Source of the DNA: an uncultured Flavobacteriaceae bacterium
GTDB lineage: Bacteria; Bacteroidota; Bacteroidia; Flavobacteriales; Flavobacteriaceae
Direction of reading: 5' to 3'
Assembly (NCBI GenBank): GCA_963727565.1
Contig: CAVSGU010000007.1
Location: 119,979-183,978 of the forward strand
Length of the DNA stretch: 64,000 nt
A model generated the notes under the pieces. That model had not been told where the DNA came from, searched no databases, and worked only from the letters and a program-made list of their open reading frames with translations. Below are positions 20,834 to 59,778 of this stretch, piece after piece. Position 1 is the stretch's first letter; each line of letters begins with the position of its first letter. A program made the translations under genes and the position numbers.

Positions 20834-23242
20834 TTATTTATTTCCGAACATCTTGTTCTTTATTCGTTGCCAGCGGGATTCTTTATCGGCACCGTAACCA
20901 TATCCGTAGCCATAAGAATACCCATACTTAGCTCCATAAGAGAATTTTGAATAATCTACATCATTTAAAATAATCGCCGGGCTTTTAAGTTTTCCCTGTT
21001 GCTTAAGTTCTTTAGGAAAATCCAGCATCTTTTTATCTGTATAATCAGCTCGCACAACATACAAGGTAGTATCAGCCAAAGGACTTACTAATAAAGTATC
21101 TGTTACTATCATAGTTGGAGCGGTATCCACCAGTACATAATCATAAACTCCGGCTGCATACTCTAATAAGCTTTCTAATCGATCATTCATAAGAAGTTCT
21201 GCAGGGTTAGGTGGAATAGGGCCTGAAAGCACCATATCTACTTTTATCCCAGCCTGTTTTTCTATGGAAATAATTTCATTTTCAGAGACTTCAAAATCGT
21301 ATAAATAATCTGAAAGGCCTTTAGGCGCGGCATCACTTATTTCGCCATACCTATGAAGTTTAGGATTACGAATATCGGCACCGATCAATAAAACTTTCTT
21401 TCCGGTACTGGCCAAGGGTTCTCGCCATATTATAAGAGACAAAAGTCTTACCTTCACCTTTTATAGTAGAGGTTACGAAAATTACCTCTCCCCTATCTTT
21501 ATCTTTATTTTGAAATAAATAGGCTAGGTTCGTTCTCAAAATCCTAAATGATTCCGCCAAAGGAGTACGATCGTTTAATTCTATACGTTCATTTTGCTCT
21601 CCTCCAATACGCGGTACTTCACCAATAAATGGAATATGTTTTATCAATCCACTCAATTCTCCTTTATGATGCACTTTAGTGTCCAGCATATTCTTAGCGA
21701 AAATTATCAGAATTGGAATTATTAAGCCAATAAGAAAACCTCCCACTAAAATAAGCCAGGGTTTAGGATCAACAGGGTCGTTATTGGTAAATGGAGCATC
21801 AATAACCCTGGCAACTGAAGCTGTAGCAGCAAAAGAAATAGCTGCTTCCTCTCTTCTTTGTAATAAAAATAAATAAAGTTGTTCCTTAATTTGTTGTTGG
21901 CGTTCAATGCTTCGCATCCCTTTTTCAAGCCCAGGAAAGTTACTAAACTGTCCCTGTGCCACATTTCCTCTTTGATTAAGTTCTCTTAGCCTTACATTAA
22001 GTGAACGTCTTGTACTTTCAATATTTTCAAAAAGGTTTTCTCTTAAATTATCAAGTTGTTGAGTTATAGTTTTTACAATCGGATTACGTTCCGTACCTCC
22101 CTCAAGGTACATATTACGCTCCATAATAAGGGTATTATACGAATTCACAAGTCCTGAAATCCCTCCTTCACTAATACCCACATCAGGTAACAATTCATAT
22201 TTACCTTGATTTCTTAATAATTCCTCTACAGAATTTAAAAGTTCCAATTGAGTTTCAATATTAAAAATCTCTTGTTCAGCAGCTGTAAATTTTGACTGGA
22301 ATTGGGAAGCCCCACTACCAATATCCATGATTTGATTATCCCTTTTAAAATCAGCGATATTTACTTCTACAGAATCTAATTCCGTAGTTATCATTTCCAG
22401 TCTATCCTGAATAAATTTAGTAGTATTTTCTGCTACCTCCTGTTTATCTTTGACACCTTCTTCATTAAAGCGTTCCATCAATTTACTAAGAAAGTCTTCC
22501 GATTTTTCAGGAGTATTCTGAACTAAACTTAAGGATAAAATATCTTTTGCCTGTCCTTTTTGAGTTATTTGCAAGTTTCGATATATATTCTGCAGCTACA
22601 GATCTGAGAGGTTGAATTCTGATATTAACAGAACTAGTTCTTCGAAAAGTTCCTTCTTCTTCTCCAGACTTTGGTAAAATAGTGAATTGAATATCATCTA
22701 ACTTAATCACTTCCCCTATACTATGATTTTCTGAATATCCAGTAGCCTCTTCTTCCAGCTTAAAAGAAGTATCAGAGGTAGGAGTAACAATAAGATTTTT
22801 AGAGATGGAATGAATAATACTATCAGGCGTTATAAACTCAATTAAAACAGGACTTGATTTATAAGCTTCAACAGTAATTACATTTCCCTCTATAAAATAA
22901 CTGATGTTATGATTTAACTCTCTAACTACACTTTCTACAAGTTGCTTGGATTTTAATTTCTCAATATGATTTTGAATTCCATCATCTTCCAGAGAAAAAA
23001 TAGCTCCTCCACCGGATGGTGTAGCATTCATTGCATTTTTTTCCTGATCGTCTACAATCATCATTGTAGCTTCAGTATTATATTTCGGAATAGTATACCT
23101 GTTATATAAATAGGCTAATCAAACCTCCAATAAGAAACCCCAGAAGAATCCACTTCCAATAGGCAAGGTATTTAAAGAGTTCAGCTTTTAAATCGAAGGT
23201 AGATTCTTCCTTCTCTTCGTTGAAATCGTTTAATTCTTCCAT
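20834..23242 (-). pseudogene. wzc: Wzc-type BY-kinase / polysaccharide co-polymerase, split by indels near 23110, 22560 and 21430
   Basis: N-terminal Wzz-like segment, AESFRILRTNL, Walker A TSTIKGEGKT, LIGADIRNP, VDTAP, Tyr cluster YGAKYGYSYGYGYGYG. Confidence 0.9.
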
Positions 23243-24041: not shown

Positions 24042-26023
24042 TTATTCACTTATTACTTCTTCTTTATTATCCAGGCTTTCAAATAATGAATTATTACTCT
24101 TGAATTCCGGGATAAGTATTTTTAATTTTTTAACCATCTTTTCCGCCTTTAATGAATTGGCAGAATCAATGATTTTTTCAATTTTTTCTTTTATCAATTC
24201 ATGATCTCTCACTACCTCCTGACCTATCATAATTTTCTTATGATGTGTAGGAAGTGTTTTACATTCATCATTCAATAATTCTTCATAAAGTTTTTCTCCG
24301 GGTCTTAATCCGGTAATCTTTACTTTAATATTTTTATTTGGATCATAACCGGCAAGTTTAATCATTTTTATAGCCAAATCCATAATTTTTACCGGTTCTC
24401 CCATATCAAAAATAAAGATCTCTCCACCTTTCCCCATAGCGCCGGCTTCAAGAACTAGCTGGCAGGCTTCGGGAATAGTCATAAAATATCTTATAATATC
24501 CGGATGAGTAATGGTAACCGGCCCTCCTTTTTCTATTTGCTTTTTAAACAAAGGCACTACAGATCCATTTGAACCTAACACGTTTCCAAATCGGGTGGTG
24601 ATAAATTTTGTAGTGTTTGGATCTTCTTTGATCCTGGAGTGATAAAGCGACTGAACATACATTTCAGCAGCTCTTTTTGAAGCTCCCATCACATTACTAG
24701 GATTAACCGCTTTATCAGTAGAAACCATAACAAAATGTGAAACTTGATACTTTAACGAAAGATCGGCCAGATTTTTTGTTCCCTGGATATTTACAAATAC
24801 AGCTTCATGAGGATTTTCTTCCATTAATGGAACATGCTTATAAGCCGCGGCGTGATAAACCACATCAATATTCTGATTTTGGAACATAAGCTCTAAACGC
24901 TTAAAGTTACCTACGTCACAAATAATGAATTTACAATTTAAGTCAGGAAACTTGGCATTCACTTCAAGGCTCAAAGTATGAAGTGGTGTTTCAGCCTGAT
25001 CAAGAATAATAAGTTTCTTTAGGGTTATACTGGGCTACCTGTCTTACAATCTCACTTCCTATAGATCCTGCTCCGCCGGTTACCAAAATAGTTTTACCCG
25101 TTAATTGCTCAATTTTATTTTCAGGATTAAGCCTAATAGGTTCACGTTCTAAAAGATCTTCGATTTGTAACGATTTTACTTTCTTCGCTATGGGTTGGGT
25201 ATCTTCACCCCAGGTTGAAACAATTGGTGCATTAAATACTTTAATATCGTTTTCAAGACAATCTTTTACAAAGTTGAATTTTTCTTCGGCCGTAAAATTA
25301 TTTTCTGAAAGGATAACTGCTTCTGCATTTACCGATTGAACAGCTTTATGAATTTCCGAAGAATAATTAATTACGGGTTTATCCAGTAATCTTATACTTT
25401 TATTGTGTTTTTCATTAGTAAGAAAACCAACTATTTTAAATCTCCTGGGGATTTCTATATCAAGCGCACCTGCTATAGAAATAGCGTTTTCATCAGCTCC
25501 AAGAATAACCGCATTTAAGATGTCTTCGTCCCGACTAACTAGTTTAAAGTATTCATATATCTGTTTCACCCCTAGTCTGAAAAGAAATAGCAAGGAAAAA
25601 GAAATACATAAATTAATGAACAAACCGCCTACCAAGAATATTTTCTTCCCTATAACAAAAAAGGTTATATAATTAATAACCAGCAAAGTAAAAAACGAAC
25701 TCATGGTAGCCAGGAGCAGCTTTAGAGCATCTATATTAGAAGAATATCTAATAATCCCTGCGTAAGTTTTAAAAATATAAAAGTAGAAAATATGAACTGC
25801 TATTACGATAAAGGCCTTATCATAAAAACTAAGAACCGTATAATAATTTGGAGTAAGATCTATAATAAGTAAAACGGTAAACAGGGTGGAAATTGCCACC
25901 AAAGAAAGGTCTATCAAATAAACCGCCCACCTGGGAAGATACTTTATATTCCTTAAATCGAGGGCGTTATCGGTTCCCGAGAGTATATTTCTTAATATAC
26001 TTTATCTCCCTATTGTTACTCAT
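24042..26023 (-). CDS. CapD/WbpM/PglF-like membrane-bound UDP-GlcNAc 4,6-dehydratase; indels near 25000 and 25990
   Basis: TGGAGSIGSEIVRQ, HAAAYKHVP, STDKAVNP, RFGNVLGSNGSV, RYFMTIPEA, GLRPGEKLYEEL. ATG 26023 overlaps the upstream stop. Confidence 0.9.
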
Positions 26024-42662: not shown

Positions 42663-44112
42663 TTAAAAATCAAAATAAATAAATTGTGATTTATCCGTAA
42701 ACATATACATTCCTATAAGAAAAACAAGAAAGCTATAAGCTCCCCATCTTAAGGTTAGTAGACCTAATTCTGGATAGGTTTTGTATAGCGAATTGATATT
42801 CTCTGCCAATCCATTCTATTCCAATAAACAAAAATACCAGAATAAAAGTACTTTTTGCTAAACCCAGACCGGGATAATATGGAATAGTAAATAAAGAGTT
42901 AGAAAAGATATTTCCAATCATAGAAATTGCATGTGGTGCACTCTCGGCTCTAAAAAATATCCAGGCGAAGACCGTAAGAGAAAAAGTTATCACAATCTTT
43001 AGTACTTCTTTCAAACCTGGTAGTAAACTTCCTTTAGCCACAACTTCCAAATTTTGCCTGTTTTTTCCTGCCAACAATAATGGTAAGAAATAGGCAGCGT
43101 TGAGTGCTCCCCATATTATAAAAGTCCAGCTTGCTCCATGCCAAAAACCACTTACAATAAAAATAATAAACGTATTCCTTACTTTCATAGGAGTTCCTCC
43201 TCTGCTTCCTCCCAGCGGTATATAAAGGTAATCCCTAAACCAGGTAGAAAGTGAGATATGCCACCTTCTCCAAAATTCTGCAATATCCCTGGAAAAATAA
43301 GGAAAAGCAAAGTTTTGCATAAGGTTAAAACCAAACAGCCTGGCCGTGCCTATAGCTATATCAGAATAGCCGGAGAAATCACCATAGATTTGAAAAGTAA
43401 AAAAAAGTGCTCCTAACAATTGGGTACTACCGGAGAGAGAGCCGGAGTTCTCAAAAATATAATTCGCGTACAGTGCACAATTGTCTGCAATTACAATTTT
43501 CTTAAATAAACCCCATAAGATTTGGCGTAAACCATCTGTAGCTTCTTCATAATTAAAATTTCTCTTCTTATTAAATTGGGGAAGTAAATTAGTAGCTCTC
43601 TCTATAGGACCGGCTACTAATTGCGGAAAAAAACTAACAAAGGCTGCAAAGGTTATAATATCTCTGGCAGGTTGTAATTTTCCTCTATAGACATCTATTG
43701 TATAACTTAGGGTTTGAAAAGTATAGAAACTTATTCCAACCGGTAGAATAATATTTAATGAACTCATACTCCAATTGGCTCCAAAAAAAGTAAAGGCATT
43801 GGATACATTCTCTATAAAAAAATTAAAATATTTAAAAACGCCTAATACGCCAAGGTTTGCTATTAAACTAAGCCATAAAAGATACTTTCGCTTTTTTAAA
43901 TTTTCAGTTTTGTTTAAAGCTAAACCAATACTAAAATCCACTAAAGTGCTAAATAAAATTAAGCTAAGAAACCGCCAATCCCACCAGGCATAAAAGATAT
44001 AACTAGCTAAAAGTATAAGTATATTTTGATACTTCAACCTATCTTTTAGCAGCCAGTATAAAACGAAAACTATCGGAAGAAAAATGGCAAAATCAAGAGA
44101 ATTAAAAAGCAA
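42663..44112 (-). CDS. MBOAT-family O-acyltransferase (AlgI/DltB-like); +1 indel near 42750
   Basis: LPVGISFYTFQ, FFPQLVAGPI, YGDFSGYSDIA, FWRRWHISLSTW, SGFWHGA. The corrected frame ends FIYFDF at 42663. Confidence 0.92.
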
Positions 44113-47748: not shown

Positions 47749-48300
47749 TTAAACTTTATGTTTAATATAGCCATCGCTCCCCTTATCACTTACCACTTTC
47801 CCTGGGTTTCCCAAAACTACACTATTATCGGGAACATCAAAATTAACATAGGATAAAGGTGCAATCAAAACATTATTTCCAATTTTAATTTTTCCCACAA
47901 CTACAGCATTTGCCCCTATCCATACTTCATTTCCAATTATTGGTGAGCCTTTCCTTTTCCCCCTACTCACATTTCCTATTGTAACTGCTTGAGAAATATT
48001 ACAGTTTTTACCAATTGTTGCTCCTTGATTTACATGCATAAGCCCCCAATGATTAAGAAAAAAACCCTCTCCTAATTGAGCCCCCAACTGAATCTGCATT
48101 CCAAATTTTGCTCTAAGCAAACGATACCATATTCTCGAGATGATACCCTAACGGATGCTTAGTGGAATAAGCATTAGCCAATCTATGATTAACCAAAATT
48201 CTAAATTCTGGATGATTAAAAAATACCGATAAAAATCCTGATTTCGAAAAACTGATCTCTACCATAGCGAAGAAGATCACTTTTGATTAAATTGAAACAT
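47749..48300 (-). pseudogene. Serine-O-acetyltransferase-like (CysE/WcaB-type) LbH protein; several indels in the 5' part
   Basis: ATG 48300, then IKSDLLRY and HRLAN in shifted frames; intact part has IGKNCNISQAVTIG, PIIGNEVWIGANA and GNPGK. Confidence 0.75.
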
Positions 48301-48340
48301 TTTGTTTTAAGCATTTTTATCTTTTATTTTGCTATAATTT

Positions 48341-48348
48341 CAAAAGTA
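48341..48348 (-). promoter_or_regulatory. -7 box TACTTTTG upstream of the cysE-like gene
   Basis: Exact TAnnTTTG 40 nt before the ATG. Confidence 0.45.
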
Positions 48349-48603
48349 AGTTAACAAAATGTAATTAAGCAATCAAAATTACTTACGTGCCTAACGATTC
48401 AATAATTCATCCTATTAAACTACAAATTTTCAGAAGGCTTTTCAAACCTAAAATAGCCACTTAATTGGAAACCAAGATAAATTTTATCAAAAATATACAA
48501 TAGTGGTATGACTCAAACTAGAAATTAGTATAATAAAATGTGAAAATTACTTATTTCTGAATTTTAAACACGCAAGCCACCTGAGGCAAAAAACAAACTC
48601 AAA

Positions 48604-48623
48604 CATATTAGAATTCTAATATG
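48604..48623. other. Perfect 20-bp palindrome catattagaattctaatatg (operator or weak terminator)
   Basis: Self-complementary; followed on the minus strand by tttgagtttgtttttt; lies in a 580-bp intergenic gap. Confidence 0.45.
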
Positions 48624-48882
48624 CTATCATCTTACTTTAAGAGAAAATAACAGTGAAGGAAATTTTCACAATAGTTCGAATTGAATTCTCATAATGTTTT
48701 GCCATAAAATAATGCTAAATCACTTAAATCAGATCAATTTAGAATAAGGCTGTTATCAAAAATACTTTTAGAATCTTTCCAAAATAAGTTTTCAAAACTT
48801 TACTTCTAAACTTCATAATAAACCTATTTTCAAACCAAAACCTTCTCTAGCATTATTCGCATGAATTATTCGTTTTTTAGAA

Positions 48883-51112
48883 TTACTCTAAATCATCAAG
48901 AGTATCTGTGATATTTATAAAATCATAAGGATTTTCATAGGTAGAATAAAAAGTTGAATCCTTCTAGAATTTTAAAATCCTCATTAAAAACAGTATTAAA
49001 TACAGCACGAAAAGTATTCACAGAAGAAATATCCGGATACAAATTTTTATTATTACTGCTTGAATTATTTATATAAATAGCATTAAAAATTTCACTCCTT
49101 TCTTTAAGAAATTCCGGACTGGGGTTTTCCATATCATCCTCCAAAAAAGCAGGACCATGATCAGACTGAATAATTATCACACTATTTTCCGATTTATTTA
49201 AAAGCTTCTCTGTTAAGGTTTTTACTTTTTTATTTAAAAATTTCAACTGTCCTAAATAATATTTTTTTTCATCTTTATTCCAGCTATTATCCAGGTTAAC
49301 AGACTTTGGTATTTCTCGGCCGTTTTCATCGAAAACATAAGGTGGATGGGGAGAAACTATATGAGCAAAAACAAATTTGGGATCTTTTATACTATCTAAT
49401 TTTGTTAAATGTTCAAAAGCATATAATATAGTTTTTCGATATTCTTTACCTGCAAAATAACCTACTAATGGTGAAAGTAAAGTAGTGTGCAGAAAATTGG
49501 TGGTGAACTCCCCCATATAGCTTGAATGCTTAAAATTGTAATCGGCATGAATATTTTTTTTGGTACCACCAAAGACACTTCCAAAATGAGCAGTTTTATA
49601 GCCTTTAGCCTTCAAATACTTTATTGCCTTACCATCTAATGCCATTTTATATGGGATACTTCTATTGGCAGATCCCTTTCCTAAAGTATCACCCAAATGG
49701 TTAATATAATCCATATTGAAAGTTGCTCCCAAGGAGAGAAAGGTATTCATATAATTAGACCTACTATTGGGAGCTATATAAAAACCTTTTTCGGTTAAAT
49801 AATTTTCAAAACTACTATTGTCAAAATCAAATTCATCTTTTAATATATCGGAACTGGCATAGCCATCAAGGATTATATAATAAATATCGGGCAAATCTTC
49901 CATACTTGTATTACTCACTTTTGCTGCCTGAAGCTCTTGATTTTCAGCGGTCTTTCTATTATCTATACTAAAAATCAATATTCTAAGTAAGACAATAGAT
50001 AATAAAGTAAAAGACAGGATATTGATTCCGCGTGATACGGGTTTTAAATTCCTTTTGGTTTTTAGGGTAAAATAAATAACCAACGCAGGAACAACGATAA
50101 AAAGTATGCCTAAAATAACAATCACCATCCTATGTGCAAAACCTAAAGCGGTAAACAAATCCCTTAAGTGACCAAACAAAAAGAACAAGGCTAAAGCGGT
50201 AAATACAAATATTTGTGTTTTAAATTTGTCTTTAACCAATAGTTTAATGGCAATAGTAAATGAAAGAGTTAGTACTAAAATTATTATAAGAAGCGAATAT
50301 ATTGACGATTCTGAATTATAAAGTTCTTCAATATTTTCAAAATAAACTGAAAGAAGTGGGAACACCGAAAACATTAAAAGAAAAATAATAAAGCCATTTT
50401 CTTTTAAAATTGGTTTGAGGGTATTTAAAGAACCTGTAAAGTAATTTGACAGTCGCCTATCAATTTCAGTAGATTCTATCTTTAATAGCAACCAGTTTTT
50501 ACCAATAGCGAACACATTGTTCATAGTCCAGAACAATACCAAGGCTGCAGAAAGATTATACAATAATACCAGGAATATAAGGGCTATTATTACTAATTGC
50601 ACTTTTTCACTTTTGTCTTTTCCTTTAGTGTAGAAATAAGAAGCTATTAAATTGACAAAAGTCATTAAAAAGGGCAATACATTTATCGCCAATCCTCCCA
50701 GCAAAATTAAACCATCGGGTTCAGATAGGTCACGAATAGGCCCAAAGGAAACCCCTTCTACCGGGGCATAATCTAAAAGTAAATAATAAGCTGCGAGAAA
50801 AAATGGAATTTGAATCAATAAGCCTATCAATCCGGTTAAAGAGTAAAACGGACTATAATTATGCTTGCGGTAAATTTCTCTTGTATAAAAATATTTTTCC
50901 TGTTTATTTTGAACATTCTTAATAGCATCAAGAGCAGGTTGCATCCTGTCTTTTCTGGCTTTTTCCAGGGCTTGTATCTTATCTGCTATCCAGAATAAAG
51001 GCAGCATTAGTATTTGCGTAGTTAAGCTTAAAAGGATTATAGACCAGCCATAACTATTCGTAATCCCATAGAAAAACTCCAATATGCTTTCAAGAAAGTT
51101 TACTAAGAACAT
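48883..51112 (-). CDS. Fusion: YidC/Oxa1-like membrane domain + TM linker + alkaline-phosphatase/sulfatase-fold (LtaS/EptA-like) domain; +1 indel near 48960
   Basis: YidC-like motifs YGWSIILLS..LPL, MQP, IQIPFF, DLSEPD, VLP, LVLFWTMNN. Sulfatase-fold motifs DIYYIILDGY, NYMNTFLS, HIVSPHPPY, QSDHG. Corrected frame ends DSTFYSTYENPYDF...LE. Confidence 0.8.
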
Positions 51113-51114
51113 TG

Positions 51115-52308
51115 TTATATTTCTTTAAATATTGATAGAATCTGTTGCGCTGCCACTTTTCCCGCGTGCTGAAAATTAAAAATATGTTTATCTATAATTT
51201 CCGGGGTTATTTTTTCATTGGATACCTTTTCGACAATAATATGAATATTGGCAATTTCTTTTTCTGAAATGGTACGGCCAAAATCTTCCAGTAAATATTT
51301 TGTGGAAGGAGGATTCTCAATATCAGATGACTCATAACCACCATCATCCCATTCAAAATCTACCGCTATAATTGGTATTTTTTGTAAAAATGCTACATCA
51401 TAGATCATTCCCGAGGTTGTATCGGTGATTAGGGCTTTGGCTTTAGAAAGGGCATGAACATTATCTACCCGTTTATCTATTTCAAAAAGATCATTCTTCT
51501 CAAATTTTGAGGTAATGGAAGCCAAGAGTTCTTTTTCTGATATCCAGGACTGCGGATGGGGCCTGTATAAAACATGATGTCCGTTTTCTATTAAATTCCC
51601 AATTAGAACTTCAGCATTACGCGGAAAAAAAGATCTATCGCCCCAGGTAGGTGCAACTAAAACATGTTCTTTAAGTTCCCCGTTTTGCGATTCTTTAGTA
51701 TCAAAATACGTGCAACCTGTTTTCATCAATTCTTTACGCTTACTTTTCCTATCGCGTTCCAATTGTCTAAGGTTAGTAATATGATATTCATTACCGCAAA
51801 GTACAGAATCATAATAATCGAATGAAAATTTCTTATTTGCGTGAACATCCATAGGAGCGTGTGCCAGATAGCAATAGTGTTCTACATTTTTTGAACGCTT
51901 CCAACTTAAAATATCCAATTGGGGAGTGGTGGTCACACACATCTTAGCCTTTAATTTGTTCAACACAAAAAAAGATTGGGTGGTATTACCAAGGTAGTGG
52001 GCCGAACAATATTCAGATTCAAGTTCTAAGCCGGGATCTTCCTTATCTGCCGTTAAATAGACAAATTTTTGCTTTCTTTTTATCAATTCTTGTAGCACAG
52101 GTTTAAAAACATTCCAGTAATTTTTTCCTTCACTAAAAAAAACCAGTTCCCCTGAAAAATCATTTGTGCCCTTATATTCTTTCCCTGCAAAAAAATGCAT
52201 CACTTTGTAGTAGGAATTTCGTATAGTAAAAGTAAGCGTCATTATAAAGCCTATTAAAATACTAATTAACAAACTTCCGGTACCGGGGTCGATATAAAGA
52301 AAAAACAT
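51115..52308 (-). CDS. CDP-glycerol:glycerophosphotransferase (TagF/TagB)-like phosphotransferase
   Basis: LVAPTWG (cf. LYAPTWR), YRPHP, LITDTTSGMIYD (cf. LITDYSS); N-terminal membrane anchor after YIDPGTGS. Confidence 0.75.
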   Translation of the reverse strand: MFFLYIDPGTGSLLISILIGFIMTLTFTIRNSYYKVMHFFAGKEYKGTNDFSGELVFFSEGKNYWNVFKPVLQELIKRKQKFVYLTADKEDPGLELESEYCSAHYLGNTTQSFFVLNKLKAKMCVTTTPQLDILSWKRSKNVEHYCYLAHAPMDVHANKKFSFDYYDSVLCGNEYHITNLRQLERDRKSKRKELMKTGCTYFDTKESQNGELKEHVLVAPTWGDRSFFPRNAEVLIGNLIENGHHVLYRPHPQSWISEKELLASITSKFEKNDLFEIDKRVDNVHALSKAKALITDTTSGMIYDVAFLQKIPIIAVDFEWDDGGYESSDIENPPSTKYLLEDFGRTISEKEIANIHIIVEKVSNEKITPEIIDKHIFNFQHAGKVAAQQILSIFKEI

Positions 52309-52310
52309 AG

Positions 52311-53021
52311 TTATTTTTTTAGGGATAAAATTCCAATGTTTTTAAGAATTGGATGGATAATATAATATTCTAAACTACTGTCATTAACAGGAAAGGGTTT
52401 TATTTCTTTTTTATTGCTTATAGCATTTAAAGCATTTACCAAACAATTAGCTCTAATTATATTATCGTAATATTGATCAATATTTACCCCTTTGGTGGGA
52501 GCATTATAGTGGGTTTTGGTTATTATATTTCCGGCGTCAATTTTTTCATTCATAAAAAATGCGGTTACCGTACAGGAATTTCTATTCAATATACTGTAAT
52601 ACAGCGTTGTGCTTCCACGTTCCGCAGGAATATCGCCTGGATGCATATGTATATAAGGTATCTCTAAATCAAAATGGTCTTTTTTAAGAATCTGGCCTCC
52701 ATAACCGCAAAAGATGACTAAATCTGGCGCAATTTCTTTAACTTGATCTACTACCTTTTTAGAATTTACATCAAATTCTTCAAGGTGCTTATAATTCCAT
52801 TTGTTACTTTTAAAAACAGTCTCAATTTCCTTTTCTAAATTGGGAAGAAATAAATTATTATCGGCAAAAAACTGTTCCGTTTCGTGGTTCAATTCAGGTG
52901 CCTTATATTCTTTTTCATCAAATCCATAAAATAAACCTTCTACTTCATAAGAATTTGAAGCTAAAGCTTGCGCGTAAGCATTAGACCTTAGGGTGTTTCC
53001 TGCGAGAAGCAAAATCTTCAT
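52311..53021 (-). CDS. Formyltransferase-family protein (N10-formyl-THF-dependent fold)
   Basis: DLVIFCGYGGQIL, HMHPGDIPAERG and MNEKIDAG motifs; no C-terminal FMT_C domain. Confidence 0.75.
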   Translation of the reverse strand: MKILLLAGNTLRSNAYAQALASNSYEVEGLFYGFDEKEYKAPELNHETEQFFADNNLFLPNLEKEIETVFKSNKWNYKHLEEFDVNSKKVVDQVKEIAPDLVIFCGYGGQILKKDHFDLEIPYIHMHPGDIPAERGSTTLYYSILNRNSCTVTAFFMNEKIDAGNIITKTHYNAPTKGVNIDQYYDNIIRANCLVNALNAISNKKEIKPFPVNDSSLEYYIIHPILKNIGILSLKK

Positions 53022-53592
53022 AAATCAACGTTTTTATTTTCACACAACTCGGTAATAATTCTATTTTCTTCCTTTATCAAATTAATTGCGGCCCCATAAT
53101 GAAAAAGTTCTTTTTCATCCTTTAACTCAAATATTCTACTGCAAACAATATCAACCACTTTTAAGAGCGAATTTAAGTACTGTAGATGTTTATATTTATT
53201 GTAAAGTTTTACCAGTACGAATCCAAAGTTGATATAAAGATTTAAATTATCGCGTTTTATATCTCTATTTACCCGGCGATAATCTTTATCGTACACTTCA
53301 TAAATCCTTTTAGTGACTTCAAACCTCTTTATTAATAAATGCACCTTATCTACTTCAGAAAAAACGGAATCAGTAGCTAACCATTTTTTAAATTCAAGAT
53401 TTGTTGTGGAATTATCTGTTATCTCATAACATAAATTATCATTTGCTAAAAGAATAGCTATACAAGCTTGCCTTTTTTCTTTCCAGGAATTGAGAAATTC
53501 CAGTCCACCAAACTTTGAATAGGAATAGTTTATTTTATTGTTAAAAACGTCCTTATTAAAATAAGTATAGTTATTTTATTTTCTCCAATCAT
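53018..53592 (-). CDS. Hypothetical protein (about 190 aa) of the phosphoramidate cassette; probable 1-bp deletion near 53575
   Basis: Frame is open from 53575 to 53018 (77 codons upstream of the track's GTG). ATG 53592 overlaps the upstream gene end and joins the frame if one A is added. Contains YSYSKFGGLEFLNSW, IKRFEVTKRIY and YLNSLLKVVD. Confidence 0.65.
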
Positions 53593-54325
53593 GAGACCAA
53601 TTCTTATCTTCTTTCAACTTTGTTTCATAAACTTTTACATCCTCGTTGGAATCGACTTCGCACCATTTGCCCTCAATAAATGCAATTTTAACATCAGTCT
53701 TTTCCATAAGCAGGGATAAAAATGAAGTCATATCCATTTTATCCTGTTCATCTTTTTCTAAAGCGTTAAAGATTTGAAAAGCCAACTCCCAGCCTTTTGG
53801 AGAAAACTTCAGCAAACCCATAAATTGAGCTTCAATATGCTCCATTTTATTTTCGTCTTTTCCTATCTCGGTCAAAACATTTCCGTTCGCTTTAAAACTT
53901 TCAGCATCATCCAGTGGATCTTCAAAGCGCGCAGACCAGAGCTTGAACCATTCTTTGTCTGCGGTAATAACGATATCACCTTCCTGATCCTTCAATTTTT
54001 GAATATGTTCATCAGAATATACTATATCTGAGTAAGAAACAATGGTATCAATTTCAATTTTAGGGGCACAAAAAAATGTTGCAACCATATTTGTTTCAGA
54101 CCATCTCGGATTTTCTGCTGTTTTAAAATCCCCCTGTAATAGTTCTGACCTATAACCTCTAACTACCGTTATATCTTCTATACCGGCTCCCCTCAAAGCA
54201 GAAAGTTGCCAATCTAATAATCTCTTACCCTTTAGCATGGTTAAACATTTATGAGATCTCTCGGTTGTACTACCCATTCGAGATCCACGTCCGGCTGCCA
54301 GTATTAATCCTTTATAATTACTCAT
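53576..54325 (-). CDS. NTP transferase; CTP:phosphoglutamine cytidylyltransferase-like (Cj1416/LicC/PntC family)
   Basis: ILAAGRGSRM, TNMVATFFCA, SYSDIVY, LWSARFEDPLDDAE, IEAQFMGLLKFS, MTSFL, WCEVD, matching Cj1416 as I recall it. Confidence 0.8.
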   Translation of the reverse strand: MSNYKGLILAAGRGSRMGSTTERSHKCLTMLKGKRLLDWQLSALRGAGIEDITVVRGYRSELLQGDFKTAENPRWSETNMVATFFCAPKIEIDTIVSYSDIVYSDEHIQKLKDQEGDIVITADKEWFKLWSARFEDPLDDAESFKANGNVLTEIGKDENKMEHIEAQFMGLLKFSPKGWELAFQIFNALEKDEQDKMDMTSFLSLLMEKTDVKIAFIEGKWCEVDSNEDVKVYETKLKEDKNWSHDWRK

Positions 54326-54938
54326 ATCTAAATAAATTTTTTATTATTTTTCCCTCCCATTCACTAAATTCTTCTTCCCTTTCGGGGTGCCACATCAATC
54401 CAAGTATTTTATTTCCCTGGTATGCTTCAATGCTATTGTCACGTTTGCACCTACCTATAATTTTCAGTGCATCTGGTTTAGTCTCATCAATTAACGTGTT
54501 GGAATGGTAAGAGTTAACTTCTTTAATTTCCTCATTTATAATTATTTGATGCCGGGTTGCTACGTGGAATGAGGAAAAACTATCTTCCCCTCTTTCAACT
54601 TCGCCTCCCAACCATTTATAGATGGCTTGAAACCCCCTACAAACACCTAATACCGGTAAAGAATGAGCTTGAGAATATTGAAAAATCAACTTTTCAGTAT
54701 TATCCCTTTCTTCAGAAACACTAAGATTTTCTCCGCCAGTAAGTATAAATGCGTTTAAATTCCAATTTCTAATATAATTATCAATGTCACTCTCAATATT
54801 TGGTAAGAGTATCCAATTAGCATTTGGCATAATTTCTTTCATATACCTATACCAATCCCGTGCTATAGAGTCCCGCTTTTCGTCATAATCAACCGCATTC
54901 GTTTCTCTCATACTTATTCCAATATTGAGTTTTTCCAT
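54318..54938 (-). CDS. Class I glutamine amidotransferase / peptidase C26; gamma-glutamyl-CDP-amidate hydrolase-like (Cj1417)
   Basis: EKRDSIARDW, ILTGG, LGVCRG (Cys nucleophile), NSYH, MWHPER (His-Glu). Confidence 0.8.
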   Translation of the reverse strand: MEKLNIGISMRETNAVDYDEKRDSIARDWYRYMKEIMPNANWILLPNIESDIDNYIRNWNLNAFILTGGENLSVSEERDNTEKLIFQYSQAHSLPVLGVCRGFQAIYKWLGGEVERGEDSFSSFHVATRHQIIINEEIKEVNSYHSNTLIDETKPDALKIIGRCKRDNSIEAYQGNKILGLMWHPEREEEFSEWEGKIIKNLFRYE

Positions 54939-54946
54939 AAGCTATA

Positions 54947-57311
54947 TTATATCGTAAATGGCTCTAAACGTTTTCCCTGGCAGTTCAATAATACTTTGCC
55001 TGCCTTTATTACCTTATTAAAAGGTTGCTCCCCGCAGCCTATTGCTGCAGGTAAATCATATTCGGCACAACGTATCGCCATATGGGAATTTGCTCCCCCG
55101 AACTTCGTTATAAGACCAGCTATTTTTCTGGAAAAAATCCAATCATAGCCTGGATCTGCTCCTTCTATACATATAATCTTACCTTCCAAATCAGGGATTT
55201 CTTTGATGAAAGGGTTCAGAAATACTATTTTCCCTTCAACTCTTTTGTTTCCAATAAAATTAGGTGCACTCCTTTGCATCGGTGCAATATATACATCTCT
55301 TCGAGAACGTATTAAGTAGTTTAGTTTAAATGAATTTGCCACATTATAAGATTTCTTTGCTTTTTTTATTCTGCGTTTAAAAAAAACTTTCAAATCCTTG
55401 GTAATTGGTTCAAATAGCACACTTCGAACATCATCTAAAGTAAGCATCGCTAAATCTTTTTTAGAAAAACCAATTAAATCACCCCATTCGGTAATATATT
55501 CTATAATCGCAGACAGATGTTTAGTGAATATAAATTTTTGATATTCCCTACCCTTTATAGCCTTTGATGCATATTCAAAAATATCATCTGCATTGATCCT
55601 GTCAAACCCGTGATCTTTCAATAGAATATTTAAATTTTCACGTTCTTTTTCACTTAATTGAAATACTTCATGCTCACCCGGTTTTTGAGGATCACCATCT
55701 AATAAATCAGGTCTATTTTTGTAACACGGCGATAAAATATCATAACTGTTTGGTCTAAGATGACCATATTTCTGCATGAATTTTTCTTTATCTAATTTAT
55801 CATTACATACCTCATAAAAGTCATTACTCAATTCTGTAGAAATAGTTTTTACACTTCTTTTAAAAGACTTCACCCTATCTTCCTCGATAGCTCCACACGC
55901 AATTGCTGATCTTAATAATGATTCTGCTATAAAACCATGCCTGGCGGTTATCGAAAAAGGTATTGTTCCATACTTTACGCATTGGTTTTTAAGCGTATTG
56001 ATATGATCTGAAATTGAAAAAGGAGTAACTAATTCTTTATTTAAATTTTCCTCCTGCAATTCTTTTAATAATTCTATTTGTGCAATAGCCTTATTTAATG
56101 TATTATCTTCTGTATTCTCTATAGCATTTTGAGTCAATTCTACTAAACAGCTCTTAAATTCAATTATTTCCTCCTTAGAAAGCAAATCGGGATATCTTTC
56201 CTTGAGATTTTCTTCAAATTTAAAATCATAAGCAGTAGGAACTACTTCAAATTCTATTTTATCGTGTAAATGAGGGTTGGTTTCCAGCCTTTCGATATAA
56301 GCATTAATAAGCTTCTCAGAAATTTCCGGACTTAGCTTTTCAGGTAGAAAAGAGTTCATACTATTACGTACATCTATATAGGCCCTACCAAATAAAGAAA
56401 CCATTAGTTCTACATCTGGCATTCTTTTATAACCCATTTCTTCCCTTGCCAAACTCCAGGCTCTTTTTGTAATTAGCTCCCGATATAAAGACATTGCAAG
56501 AGGGTGAGGTACCACACCAATCATTTCTGCAGGATTCCAATCGGGCATTATACCAAGCAGGGTTTTGTTACCATAAATATCAACCCTCCTGGTCATCAAT
56601 TGCTGCACAAAATCCTCAAGATAAGGAAGCCTTTCAGAAACTAATTTATTTGCTTTATTCTTCCAATTTTCAGAAGTAGTAATCGGCCTTACCTGCAGTA
56701 TAAAAACTTCATTCTTCTTATTTAATGCAAATTCAATGTCTAAAGGTAAATCCTTATAAAAAGCCTCCAATTCCCCTACCACTTTTAGAACCTTTAATAG
56801 ATAAGGAGAATCAAAATCTTCATCTTTAAAACCGTTATAGATATAAACCGTTTTATTAATGGAATTCCCACTTGTTACCGTATCTGTTTTACCTGTTGTA
56901 TCGTCAAAATTAATGACGTAGTATGGTGAGCCATCATCAAGAGACTTAGTCATTATAACCCCGCTCATTCTTACATCCTCCACCATAGGCTGTATCAAGA
57001 CTTGATTCTCAGGATTGTTATCAAAAGAATTAATTACAGTATCGATAGCTCTAGCCAGGTCATCTCTATTTTTAACATTAACATTTAAAACACTTTCAAA
57101 AGCTCCTGCCATAGAATCCACCTCTGTATCTTCTGCCATAGAACTGCTTCGAACGGCTAAATATGTGAAACTTTCATATTTTCTGGAAATGTTAGTAATA
57201 ACTTTATCTTTTAAATCATTCCATTCTTGTACCGTAAAAAAATGAACATCGGGTACGGGAAATCCATTTTCAGATATATATCTGTAGCGTTTCAGCTTTT
57301 GTTCCTAGCAT
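54947..57311 (-). CDS. PEP-utilising/PPDK-like enzyme; L-glutamine kinase-like (Cj1418); +1 indel near 57265
   Basis: Reconstructed N-terminus MLGTKAETL...AVRSSSMAEDTEVDSMAGAF (ATP-grasp), ILQVRPI, DWNPAEMIG, YGHLRP, and a C-terminal phospho-His domain GGANSHMAIRCAE; about 787 aa. Confidence 0.82.
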
Positions 57312-57342: not shown

Positions 57343-57499
57343 TTGGTATTTATTAAAAATAAGGTAAAGTAAATTGCGAAAACTTAGTTAAAAATAAATC
57401 GAGAAGCTTTGACGGTCAATTCTCAAATAATTCCGAATGAAAACATACAATACACTTATTAAAAATTAATAATATTTATTCTGGTTGAATCCAATTGCT

Positions 57500-58441
57500 T
57501 CAAAAAAGTAAAGTAACTTGATAATTATAATATAATTCTTTTCGAATAAAATTAGCCTCAGGGATAGCTATGCATAAATATCGGTTTTTGCTCTTAAATA
57601 ACATAAATTACCCAATACCGAACTGTAAAAAGAGACAACGGTTTTTGGAAAAACGTTACTATTAAGATACTCTTCCTCAAAGATGCTATTAAAATTCTTT
57701 ATTTCAAAGAATTCAGCAATTTTCTCAATAATATCTTTGGTTTCTCTTGGATGAGGAACATATAAAAATTTTTTATTTGGAAATTTTTCTTCAATCTATG
57801 TAAACATTTTAAATAAAATTCACTCGAGACAATATCCAGTTGTACTAAAGGTTGCCCTACAAAAATAACTTTAGAATCATCCAATTTAGGATGCTCTTAT
57901 TGTTTTCTTTTTTAAAGTTTTGAAAGTATCGTTAGATCAACATGAAGGGAGAAGGGACCAACAAAATTTAAAGATTCTATTTTGGGTTGTTTAAATTTTA
58001 ACTTTATAAAAAAACACGGTAAGTTCCTAACTTCTACATTATTATTCTTTCTATTATGGGCTACTGAAATTAACTGCATCCCATCATATAAAAGAAAAAT
58101 TTTACTGTTTTTTTCATATTCTCCAACTATACTTAAATGATAAAAATTACTATAGCTCCCCATATAAACATTCTGAAAAGTTTTAAATTTTCTTTTAAAT
58201 TGAAATAACCAGACTCTAAAGAAAAGAATTTTAGAAAATTCAAGTATGTCATTATTTCTAGCCACATAAACTATTGAAGTATATTCAAATTCAAATCCTC
58301 GAAGATATTAAGTATTTTTGAAGCAATTGTTTTATTAGGCACGGTTAAAACAACAACTGCATTTTCTAAAAGTTCGGGAGCTTTGGAAAAAAAAAAAGCC
58401 TGTGAAGGAGTGGATAATACAAATAGATTTTGTTTAGACAT
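57500..58441 (-). pseudogene. Putative nonulosonate (sialyl/pseudaminyl) transferase, several indels; 3' end approximate
   Basis: ATG 58441 gives MSKQNLFVLSTPSQ. Fragments carry LLYDG (D/E-D/E-G-like), FVGQP, YVPHPRE (HP) and SFYSSV (SS/T), the bacterial sialyltransferase motif order. Confidence 0.6.
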
Positions 58442-58517: not shown

Positions 58518-59778
58518 TTAGACTACATTCTTATCCGGTGTATGTAAGGCATGATAGATAATGTAAAACATACTTAAAGTGGATATTATTTCTGCCATTA
58601 AAGCTCCTAAAAAAATAAAATTGAGTTTTTGATTTGCAGGCGCCAGAAAATAAAACCTAAGCGGAGACAGAATATATAGAATATTTGTAATTATAGAGAT
58701 TTTAAGCTGTGCCGCGTAATCTTTTAGGGTATTTAAAACCTGAAAGATAAGGGCATACATTCTAAAAAATCCAATTACCACAGCAATCATAGTAATTGTT
58801 ATGGCTTCCTCGTATTTAGGAAAAAAATTCTGTATAGCATAGGGAATAAAGAATAAAGATAGTAATGCAAGACTCCCAAAACCGGTAAGATAAATCGATA
58901 ATTTTCTGTATTTTTTTCCATAATCTCTTTTTATCGCCGGTTTTTCCATAATCAAAAGTTAAACTCGGGAACATATACTTTGCTAGTGCTCCAGGTAAAA
59001 TACCAAAGGCCATCATAGCGGCATTAGCCGGTGCGGTTAAACCTAAAGCAGTAGTAGATAAGAAAAAAACAATTATTAGCCTCGGGTACGTATCCGGGAA
59101 TATTGTTTTAAAAAATTAAAACATAACATGGGAAAACCTATTTTAAGATTTTCAAAATAAGTAGCTTTAATAAAAGTTGATTTTACTTTAATTGGTCTAA
59201 ATACTACGAGCAAAACAGTAGAGAAAATACTATGAATCAGCAAGAGGAGCAAATATCCTAAAAATTCATAAAAGAAAATTAAGAGGAATTAAGGCAACTC
59301 CTACAATAGAGGATATAACATACACCTTTGATAAATCCTTAAAACTTTTTGAGGACCTATAGGTAGAAGATAAATAATTATCTACAAACATGGTAGAGAT
59401 AAAAACTCCTGCCGTAAGATATACCAAAATTTCCTCGGTGCCATCTGCAATAAATATCGCCATAAGTACAGCAATTAATAAAAATATTACTGTATACCAG
59501 ATGGTTACAAATTGTGCAGTAGATGCATATTCCTTAACCTTCGCCATTTTATCCTGCCCCATGTAAAATGGTAATTGTCTCCCTAAGCCCTGGGTAAGGC
59601 CTAATTGTAAAAAACCTATATATGGTTTAACAATTAAGGCGGCCTGCCAAAGCCCTAACTTTTCTGGTCCGATAACTTTTATAGCTATTAAACTCATGGC
59701 CATTGCTGCAAAAGTTTTAAATAAAGAACTGGCAGTAAAACCTACTACTACTTTAGAACCTTTTAATGATTTAATCAT
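58518..59778 (-). pseudogene. Wzx-like oligosaccharide flippase, split by indels (track ORFs 59266-59961, 58816-59016, 58518-58955)
   Basis: ATG 59778 preferred. GPEKLGLWQ, LQLGLTQGLGRQLP and many TM helices; total length about 420 codons. Confidence 0.7.

Follow-up and report, generated by a model that had tools for sequence, protein, structure and literature searches.

In the 64,000-nucleotide (nt) stretch of an uncultured Flavobacteriaceae bacterium analysed here (contig CAVSGU010000007.1, positions 119,979 to 183,978; 'the window' denotes this whole stretch), one gene of a polysaccharide locus, the fusion gene under study at 48883..51112 on the minus strand, is predicted to encode a three-part inner-membrane enzyme. 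In this protein, a YidC fold without the groove arginine is followed by a five-helix membrane domain of the EptA type and by an alkaline-phosphatase-fold phosphotransferase domain with a candidate threonine nucleophile. Together with a TagF-like partner, the fusion protein apparently forms a previously undescribed machine that puts unusual phosphorus groups on surface sugars. To our knowledge, the installation of phosphonate and phosphoramidate groups on bacterial surface glycans is largely unexplained, and the pair of genes, which is found beside cassettes of the PepM or the Cj1418 type, offers a concrete and testable candidate for this step. We propose a relay, to which we assign a probability of about 0.4, in which the TagF-like enzyme would load a phosphorus group (P-X) onto a lipid, the YidC-like groove would move the head group outward and Thr457 of the fusion protein would transfer it to a glycan.

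The anatomy of the fusion gene, with its transmembrane (TM) segments and the methods on which each assignment is based, is as follows.

48883..51112, minus strand: gene for the YidC-like, five-TM and EptA-like phosphotransferase fusion (open reading frame (ORF), Pfam, NCBIfam, homolog alignment, AlphaFold2, Foldseek)
50477..51112, minus strand: YidC-like domain, residues 1-212, with five TM helices and the cytoplasmic C1 hairpin (Pfam/NCBIfam, HMMER alignment)
49913..50476, minus strand: linker helix and five more TM helices, at about residues 240-383 (hydropathy, AlphaFold2, Foldseek to full-length EptA 5fgn and MCR-1 9nww)
48938..49912, minus strand: alkaline-phosphatase-fold domain, predicted periplasmic, residues 401-725 (Pfam, homolog alignment, Foldseek)

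The domain matches of the fusion protein are not due to chance. Pfam 60KD_IMP (PF02096) matches residues 21-209 with 89.2 bits (cut-off 35), the NCBIfam model TIGR03592 for the YidC/Oxa1 C-terminal core reaches 97.7 bits (cut-off 84.3), and Pfam Sulfatase (PF00884) covers residues 498-658 with 45 bits (cut-off 25), along profile positions 85-247 only. An AlphaFold2 model calculated with 30 homologs (mean predicted local distance difference test score (pLDDT) 80.8, predicted template modelling score (pTM) 0.58) consists of ten long membrane helices and a subsequent alpha/beta domain. When compared with the PDB by Foldseek, it ranked full-length EptA (5fgn) first and full-length MCR-1 (9nww) second, with matches spanning 568-573 columns, ahead of the catalytic domains of EptA, EptC and MCR and of E. 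coli YidC (6al2; 24% identity over 209 columns). Hydropathy and the positive-inside rule predict ten TM helices with the N-terminus, and thus both ends, outside. The loops rich in lysine and arginine (44-94, 154-173, 213-239, 294-297 and 349-357) are predicted to be cytoplasmic, and the catalytic domain should therefore lie outside, in the periplasm.

The catalytic domain carries candidate metal ligands at D416 (codon 49867-49865) and D651/H652 (49162-49157) and a candidate nucleophile, T457 (49744-49742), in the motif NYMNT. Across the 30 homologs, D416 and Y418 (ILDGY), T457, H584, P588, H589 and P591 (SPHPPY) and H652 and G653 (SDHG) are invariant, and D651 is kept in at least 90%. D416 and T457 are 41 residues apart, which agrees with the E240-T280 spacing of EptA. 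A true formylglycine sulfatase was considered and rejected, since the nucleophile site reads N-Y-M-N-T-F-L-S-L and the C/S-x-P-x-R motif is missing. By analogy with EptA, we propose that the catalytic domain may use a membrane lipid as donor of the phosphoryl group. These results bear out much of a preliminary description of the gene, which had read the first 205 or so amino acids (aa) as YidC-like and had picked out ILDGY, HPPY and SDHG as ligand motifs and the threonine of NYMNT as nucleophile; its placement of the sulfatase-like domain outside the cytoplasm is matched by the predicted topology and by the AlphaFold2 and Foldseek results.

The preliminary description had also read glutamine for the arginine of the hydrophilic groove, and HMMER alignments to solved YidC structures indeed place Q33 (codon 51016-51014) opposite R366 of E. 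coli and R72 of B. halodurans. Among 30 full-length homologs, 29 of which cover this column, the residue is mostly T, with Q, M or S in the remainder. Fusion ORFs from metagenome contigs (n = 96) have N in 49 cases, T in 24, S in 19, F in three and G in one, and 137 further representatives of clusters at 50% identity have N (75), S (40), T (9), F (7), M (2) or Q (2), with two gaps. Neither R nor K occurs at the groove position in the 29 homologs, the 96 metagenome ORFs or the 135 of 137 representatives with a residue there. A phmmer search of 1.84 billion cluster representatives with the 212-residue YidC-like domain recovered 912 clusters (50% identity) at E<=1e-30 and 3059 at E<=1e-10; among the best 150 matches, the domain is nearly always N-terminal and the proteins are mostly 700-1230 aa long. 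The central groove arginine has been reported as strictly conserved among YidC homologs (Chen et al., PMC8920935), and, judged by alignment, the YidC-like clade is an exception to this rule. In E. coli YidC, an aromatic or hydrophilic residue 517 makes the exchanges R366N and R366A tolerable (PMC8920935), and the equivalent of residue 517 is an invariant tryptophan here (W195); loss of the arginine alone is therefore no proof of a lost insertase ability. The groove is kept polar by Q101, N198 and N199, and K or R at position 205 (K205 in the window) is nearly invariant. With about 900 clusters at 50% identity, this arginine-less, enzyme-fused clade constitutes a natural experiment on the purpose of the YidC groove.

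Is the fusion protein simply the insertase of its host? The genome holds a second PF02096 match on another contig, with 189 bits, in an ORF of 623 aa, the typical length in Bacteroidota, in which the arginine is kept (..TIVVRIVLSP..). The possibility that the fusion gene is the sole yidC of the genome is thereby excluded. Within the phylum, the fusion occurs in one of 401 sampled genomes, namely that of the window, and unfused relatives consisting of the five TM helices and the catalytic domain occur in eight. By these sequence comparisons, which include the absence of the arginine throughout the clade, the fusion protein is not the housekeeping insertase, as the preliminary description had supposed. 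An assembly artefact at the fusion junction, which it had named as a possible objection, was likewise ruled out, because dozens of independent assemblies show this architecture. A scan of genome contigs with the full-length alignment returned almost exclusively unfused relatives of about 510 aa, and the fusions were collected by a second scan, of metagenomes, with the YidC-like domain. Full-length fusions of 733-755 aa are found in Christiangramia gaetbulicola (74% identity), a Saprospiraceae metagenome-assembled genome (MAG), Flaviaesturariibacter amylovorans and many ENA, JGI, Logan and TARA contigs; longer ones of 840-1140 aa with more divergent sulfatase-like domains come, for example, from a Haliotispira spirochaete and a Desulfovibrio MAG. 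In fusions of up to 760 aa, the median identity to the window protein is 66% for the YidC-like domain, 38% for the five-TM region and 53% for the catalytic domain; in longer fusions it is 50% for the YidC-like domain, while the five-TM region is undetectable and the catalytic domain mostly so. The YidC-like domain, cytoplasmic hairpin included, is thus the most conserved part of these proteins. Fusions of 740-1090 aa in public records (P0004, an NCBI annotation, P0023, P0094 and P0103) are named 'YidC/Oxa1 family membrane protein insertase', a label that is misleading as it hides both the enzyme domain and the missing arginine.

The fusion gene is preceded, with a gap of two bases, by a partner gene that the preliminary description had passed over, together with its membrane anchor.

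51115..52308, minus strand: partner of 397 aa, with a TM anchor ('MFFLYIDPGTGS') at its N-terminus and, after it, a TagF-like GT-B phosphotransferase domain (AlphaFold2, Foldseek, profile search)

Its N-terminus (MFFLYIDPGTGSLLIS...) forms a single TM helix, on which the GT-B domain follows; the motif YIDPGTGS at this membrane anchor is conserved in the partner family, whose members have about 400 aa. The AlphaFold2 model of the partner (pLDDT 90.2) gave TagF (3l7k, 3l7l) as top Foldseek matches, a profile of 28 partner sequences matches TarL (8va1) with E=3e-4 across the R-P-H-P and D-x-S-G motifs, and the catalytic histidine motif R249-P250-H251-P252 is invariant. The copy in the window has no Pfam match, and two distant homologs (L066 and L046) pass the cut-off of Pfam Glyphos_transf (PF04464). 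In every named genome examined, the fusion gene comes after the partner, and the stop codon of one often overlaps the start codon of the other. On metagenome contigs, 51 fusion genes have 1.4 kb or more of sequence on each side; the partner is the immediate neighbour of 25 of them and lies no more than four genes away from 40. In the window the two genes are in different frames, and too few of the homolog pairs share a frame for the two proteins to be modelled as one read-through chain. In one locus (L103:2675-6209), the YidC-like part (about 220-230 aa) and the part with five TM helices and catalytic domain are separate adjacent genes after the TagF-like gene, and in two others (L111:1628-3585 and L112:5948-7911) a stand-alone YidC-like gene of the same size directly follows the TagF-like gene. 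From these split and stand-alone cases we conclude that the tightest linkage is that of the TagF-like gene with the YidC-like domain.

Upstream of the pair, five further genes make up a block in the window.

52311..53021, minus strand: formyltransferase-fold protein of 236 aa, an accessory of the phosphoramidate cassette that is absent from the minimal cassette described below (family scans, locus comparison)
53018..53592, minus strand: uncharacterised protein of about 191 aa, broken near its start in the window, where 108 aa are called (homolog comparison)
53576..54325, minus strand: nucleotidyltransferase, a Cj1416-like cytidylyltransferase (family scans)
54318..54938, minus strand: class-I glutamine amidotransferase fold, Cj1417-like (NCBIfam)
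54947..57298, minus strand: PPDK-like ATP-grasp and phospho-histidine enzyme (NF004508/PRK05849, 882 bits, cut-off 501)

The best NCBIfam match of the Cj1417-like protein is gamma-glutamyl-CDP-amidate hydrolase, with 92 bits, which is under the cut-off of 250 bits. The gene at 54947..57298 is without a canonical start in the window; its called ORF begins at 57139 and homology extends to 57298. We take NF004508/PRK05849 to be the Cj1418 L-glutamine kinase family. By homology, these Cj1418-, Cj1417- and Cj1416-like genes correspond to the initial steps of the O-methyl-phosphoramidate pathway of Campylobacter. Since the whole genome (G000) contains no convincing Cj1415-type kinase of the adenosine phosphosulfate (APS) kinase fold, with just two P-loop matches of about 22 bits, the phosphoramidate donor, if made, is probably unphosphorylated cytidine diphosphoramidate. 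A minimal cassette of five genes in another locus (L109:272-7959) comprises the Cj1418-, Cj1417- and Cj1416-like genes, the TagF-like gene and a YidC fusion of 871 aa, and lacks the formyltransferase-like and 191-aa genes.

The preliminary description had linked the fusion protein to phosphoramidate, and for the window this is supported by the three Cj-like genes; the link is not specific, as phosphonate cassettes, which had been overlooked, appear to be served too. In L005, the pair follows a fusion of PepM and cytidylyltransferase, a phosphonopyruvate decarboxylase (Ppd) and an iron-dependent alcohol dehydrogenase (Fe-ADH); by established phosphonate biochemistry, such a cassette would yield cytidine monophosphate (CMP)-2-hydroxyethylphosphonate (PMC6697681). 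In L004 and L007, the pair follows a small S-adenosylmethionine (SAM) methyltransferase. Counted over 86 fusion loci, PepM is found near the fusion in 12, Ppd in 11, Fe-ADH in eight, the small SAM methyltransferase in eight and the Cj1418/1417-like pair in four, to which the window adds one. An unbiased Pfam tally of 148 neighbouring genes has PEP_mutase, TPP_enzyme and CTP_transf_like among the commonest families, and in an unfused locus from Chloroflexota (L046) enzyme, mini-protein (see below), PepM and a TagF-like gene stand together. Because PepM-type cassettes also adjoin the pair, we suggest that the module serves several CMP-activated phosphorus donors and not phosphoramidate alone.

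How might these parts work together? In the relay that we propose, the upstream cassette would first make a CMP-activated donor, which would be cytidine diphosphoramidate in the window, by way of the Cj1418-, Cj1416- and Cj1417-like enzymes, and CMP-2-hydroxyethylphosphonate in relatives. At the cytoplasmic face, the TagF-like enzyme would then transfer P-X to the hydroxyl of a lipid, in the simplest case diacylglycerol, with release of CMP. The polar YidC-like groove would shift the rare head group to the outer leaflet, where Thr457 would take over P-X, hand it to a surface glycan and free the lipid for a new round, much as EptA does with phosphatidylethanolamine. A dedicated flippase would make sense here because such a donor lipid would be rare, unlike bulk phosphatidylethanolamine or phosphatidylglycerol. 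A role of the YidC fold in scrambling or translocating the lipid-linked donor may find a precedent in YidC and other insertases, which two reports describe as lipid scramblases (10.1101/2023.09.01.555937, PMC11997395). The combination of a constant YidC-like core with a variable catalytic domain, as it appears in the alignments, would be consistent with conservation on the side of the donor and variation on that of the acceptor.

The relay is based on domain anatomy, predicted topology, intact catalytic residues, gene coupling and cassette associations, and several points weigh against it. The lipid intermediate, the flipping or scrambling by the YidC fold and the glycan acceptor are parts that we infer. 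The usual acceptors of TagF-family enzymes are glycans or glycerol phosphate, and not diacylglycerol. Most fusion loci are without a nearby donor cassette, though many of these contigs are short, and at a pTM of 0.58 it is uncertain how the YidC domain packs on the EptA-like membrane domain. The relatives of about 510 aa function without any YidC domain, and the copy of the fusion gene in the window is frameshifted and may be inactive.

The unfused relatives of about 510 aa occur in Actinomycetota, Chloroflexota, the candidate phyla radiation, Omnitrophota, Zixibacteria and some archaea, in a module of three genes: a DPGTGS mini-protein, a methyltransferase-like protein of about 460 aa and the enzyme. 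The mini-protein (70-90 aa) has a signal peptide, for which cleavage is predicted immediately in front of Y[IL]DPGTGS, followed by a TM helix, and shares homology with the N-terminal part of the TagF-like partner. It was noted upstream of the unfused enzyme at about 8350-8620 in each of L015, L020, L022, L024, L026, L053, L073 and L081. The 460-aa protein, which starts with ..SFRDPSGFLF.., lies between mini-protein and enzyme in 54 of 78 unfused loci (for example at L022:8613-9989, L081:8658-10049 and L073:8589-9977); it was absent from all YidC-fusion loci, its place being taken there by the TagF-like protein. Pfam and NCBIfam hold no model for the mini-protein, the 460-aa SFRDPSGF protein or the unfused sulfatase-like family. 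In YidC-fusion loci the TagF-like protein itself carries the anchor, as its N-terminus, without a signal peptide in 50 cases and with one in seven; in unfused loci the anchor is the separate mini-protein, with a signal peptide in about 36 cases and without in about four. Judged from these predictions the correlation is striking, yet it is confounded by clade, as the two classes of loci belong to different clades and are not phylogenetically independent.

This correlation bears on the main alternative, which we hold to be somewhat less likely than the relay and in which the YidC-like domain acts on protein and moves no lipid: it could be a private insertase, or a permanent dock, for the YIDPGTGS helix of the partner, placing the short acidic N-tail across the membrane and holding the TagF-like enzyme against the EptA-like one. 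The anchor, with its very short acidic N-tail and one TM helix, resembles a classical YidC-only substrate, and the signal peptide is mostly missing just where the YidC domain is present, although seven fusion loci retain this domain despite a signal peptide on the partner, and the confounding by clade applies here as well. Such a function would match the tight linkage of the TagF-like gene with the YidC-like domain (including the stand-alone genes of L111 and L112 and the split genes of L103), the high conservation of the C1 hairpin and the ability of a groove without arginine but with an aromatic residue 517 to insert proteins in E. coli (PMC8920935). On the other hand, the housekeeping YidC could insert such an anchor, and it would be unexpected for an assembly helper to be more conserved than the catalytic domain.

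We also considered that the two enzymes might be independent of each other. The TagF-like enzyme would then add a phosphoramidate or phosphonate (P-N/P-C) group to a lipid-linked sugar in the cytoplasm, the fusion protein would add an ordinary group, for example phosphoethanolamine or glycerophosphate, from bulk phospholipid in the periplasm, and the YidC fold would be just a scaffold. Such activities would correspond to the usual chemistry, by established knowledge, of TagF-like capsule polymerases and of EptA, LtaS and OpgB, and would accommodate the absence of a special donor cassette near most fusion loci. They leave unexplained, however, the strict and often translationally coupled pairing, the DPGTGS anchor common to fused and unfused systems, the very strong conservation of the YidC-like domain and the minimal cassette of L109, where nothing but the fusion accompanies the donor enzymes and the TagF-like gene. 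We consider this explanation improbable, and clearly more so than a function on protein.

The state of the window copy itself raises a different doubt. The preliminary description had given the gene as 48883-51112 and had passed over a frameshift.

48965, minus strand: an extra A that shifts the frame of the fusion gene (comparison with the 95%-identical homolog in L008)

The ORF called with translation table 11 is 48935..51112 (minus strand; 725 aa). At 48965, the window reads ATTCT[A]GAAGG, with one A more than the L008 homolog; if it is skipped, the conserved tail is restored and the +1 frame continues to a TAA at 48885-48883, and 48883 is thus indeed the end of the corrected frame. Relatives end in ...FKILKDSTFYSTYxNPYDFINITxTLDDLE and the window copy in ...FKILEGFNFLFYL before its stop, so that the frameshift swaps the last 28 or so conserved residues, from KDST onward, for EGFNFLFYL. 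Between the fusion gene and a hexapeptide transferase, the 5' part of which is frameshifted, lies an AT-rich segment of about 800 nt without a called ORF (48121-48934).

The fusion gene is not the only damaged one: eight or more others are broken in the same 40 kb of the polysaccharide locus, at 20834-23064, 24042-25917, 42666-44112, 47749-48274, 53018-53592, 57139-57298, 57462-58429 and 58542-59757. They comprise a Wzc-like kinase split over three ORFs, a PglF-like dehydratase split over two, frameshifted genes for a MATE flippase, a polysialyltransferase-like protein, a hexapeptide acyltransferase and an MBOAT protein, the truncated gene of the 191-aa protein (53018-53592) and the glutamine kinase without canonical start (57139-57298). 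In the first 20 kb of the window, no obvious gene breaks were seen. Either decay of the locus in this strain or indel errors in the assembly of AT-rich sequence could be the cause. If it is decay, the fusion gene and much of the polysaccharide locus would be non-functional in this genome, whatever the family does elsewhere. The insertion at 48965 and the accumulation of broken genes in these 40 kb, compared with the first 20 kb, argue for this view; yet identities to intact homologs are still 79-96%, the frameshift costs the fusion protein just its last residues, and an error-prone assembly of an AT-rich region would give the same picture of indels. We regard decay as doubtful.

The domains discussed here are all of known kinds; what is new is the arginine-less, enzyme-fused YidC clade, its obligatory and anchored TagF-like partner and the association with P-N/P-C cassettes. 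No description of the YidC-EptA-like architecture, its partner or the cassette association was found in the searchable literature. What comes nearest is a published mention of 'multiple sulfatases' in some phosphonate clusters (PMC8942020); LicD-like transferases and 'sulfatases' without an explained role appear in work on phosphonate tailoring (PMC6697681, PMC8942020). We tentatively suggest, at somewhat less than even odds, that a fold of the Oxa1 superfamily was diverted from protein insertion to small molecules and became a flippase reserved for a rare phosphoramidate or phosphonate donor linked to lipid, within a self-contained synthase-flippase-transferase machine (the TagF-like enzyme, the YidC-like and the EptA-like domain) that would supply the missing step of P-N/P-C installation. 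With the same reserve, it might be the first YidC fold to have the transport of a lipid-linked small molecule as its dedicated task. If it is true that the YidC fold moves lipid here, this would lend in vivo genetic support to the view of insertases as scramblases.

Among known systems, the best structural matches of the fusion protein are the phosphoethanolamine transferases EptA, MCR-1, EptC and BcsG. Like the fusion, these have five TM helices followed by a periplasmic domain of the alkaline-phosphatase fold, a threonine nucleophile about 40 residues past the first acidic ligand and a D-H pair near the C-terminus. Identity to them is just 12-15%, and the fusion adds an N-terminal YidC fold and a TagF-like partner with a DPGTGS anchor; moreover, the EptA group uses bulk phosphatidylethanolamine, whereas the fusion adjoins cassettes for dedicated CMP-activated donors. 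With YidC, Oxa1 and Alb3, the N-terminal domain has in common the five-TM core, the cytoplasmic coiled-coil hairpin, scores above the Pfam and TIGRFAM cut-offs, the polar groove residues Q101, N198 and N199 and the aromatic residue at E. coli position 517. It differs from them in the absence of the groove arginine, in place of which there is a conserved K or R at the cytoplasmic end of TM5, in its fusion to an enzyme, in its coexistence with a canonical YidC, in its occurrence in less than 1% of the genomes of the phylum and in the lack of a C-terminal ribosome-binding tail.

The O-methyl phosphoramidate (MeOPN) capsule pathway of C. jejuni (Cj1415-Cj1422) is represented by homologs of Cj1418, Cj1416 and Cj1417, which form an operon-like block beside capsule genes in the window. 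The set is incomplete there, as only these three are present, Cj1421 and Cj1422 homologs not having been searched for directly; in contrast to C. jejuni, the genome has no Cj1415-type 3'-kinase, and the TagF-like and YidC-EptA-like genes are among those that follow the donor enzymes. Family scans of the cassette genes showed no methyltransferase. TagF, TarL and TagF-like capsule polymerases have the GT-B fold, the R-P-H-P and D-x-S-G motifs and the CMP-releasing chemistry from a CDP-linked donor in common with the partner, which differs by its single N-terminal TM anchor with YIDPGTGS. No CDP-glycerol or CDP-ribitol synthase is encoded near the partner gene, and its donors are likely to be a CDP-amidate or a CMP-phosphonate. 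Finally, the proposed order of cytoplasmic loading, flipping and extracytoplasmic decoration is also that of GtrA/GtrB/GtrC, ArnC/ArnEF/ArnT and CsbB/GtcA/YfhO. This is a functional analogy only: the proteins are not homologous, the load would be a phosphoryl or phosphonyl group instead of a sugar, and the presumed flippase, a YidC fold, is fused to the final transferase.

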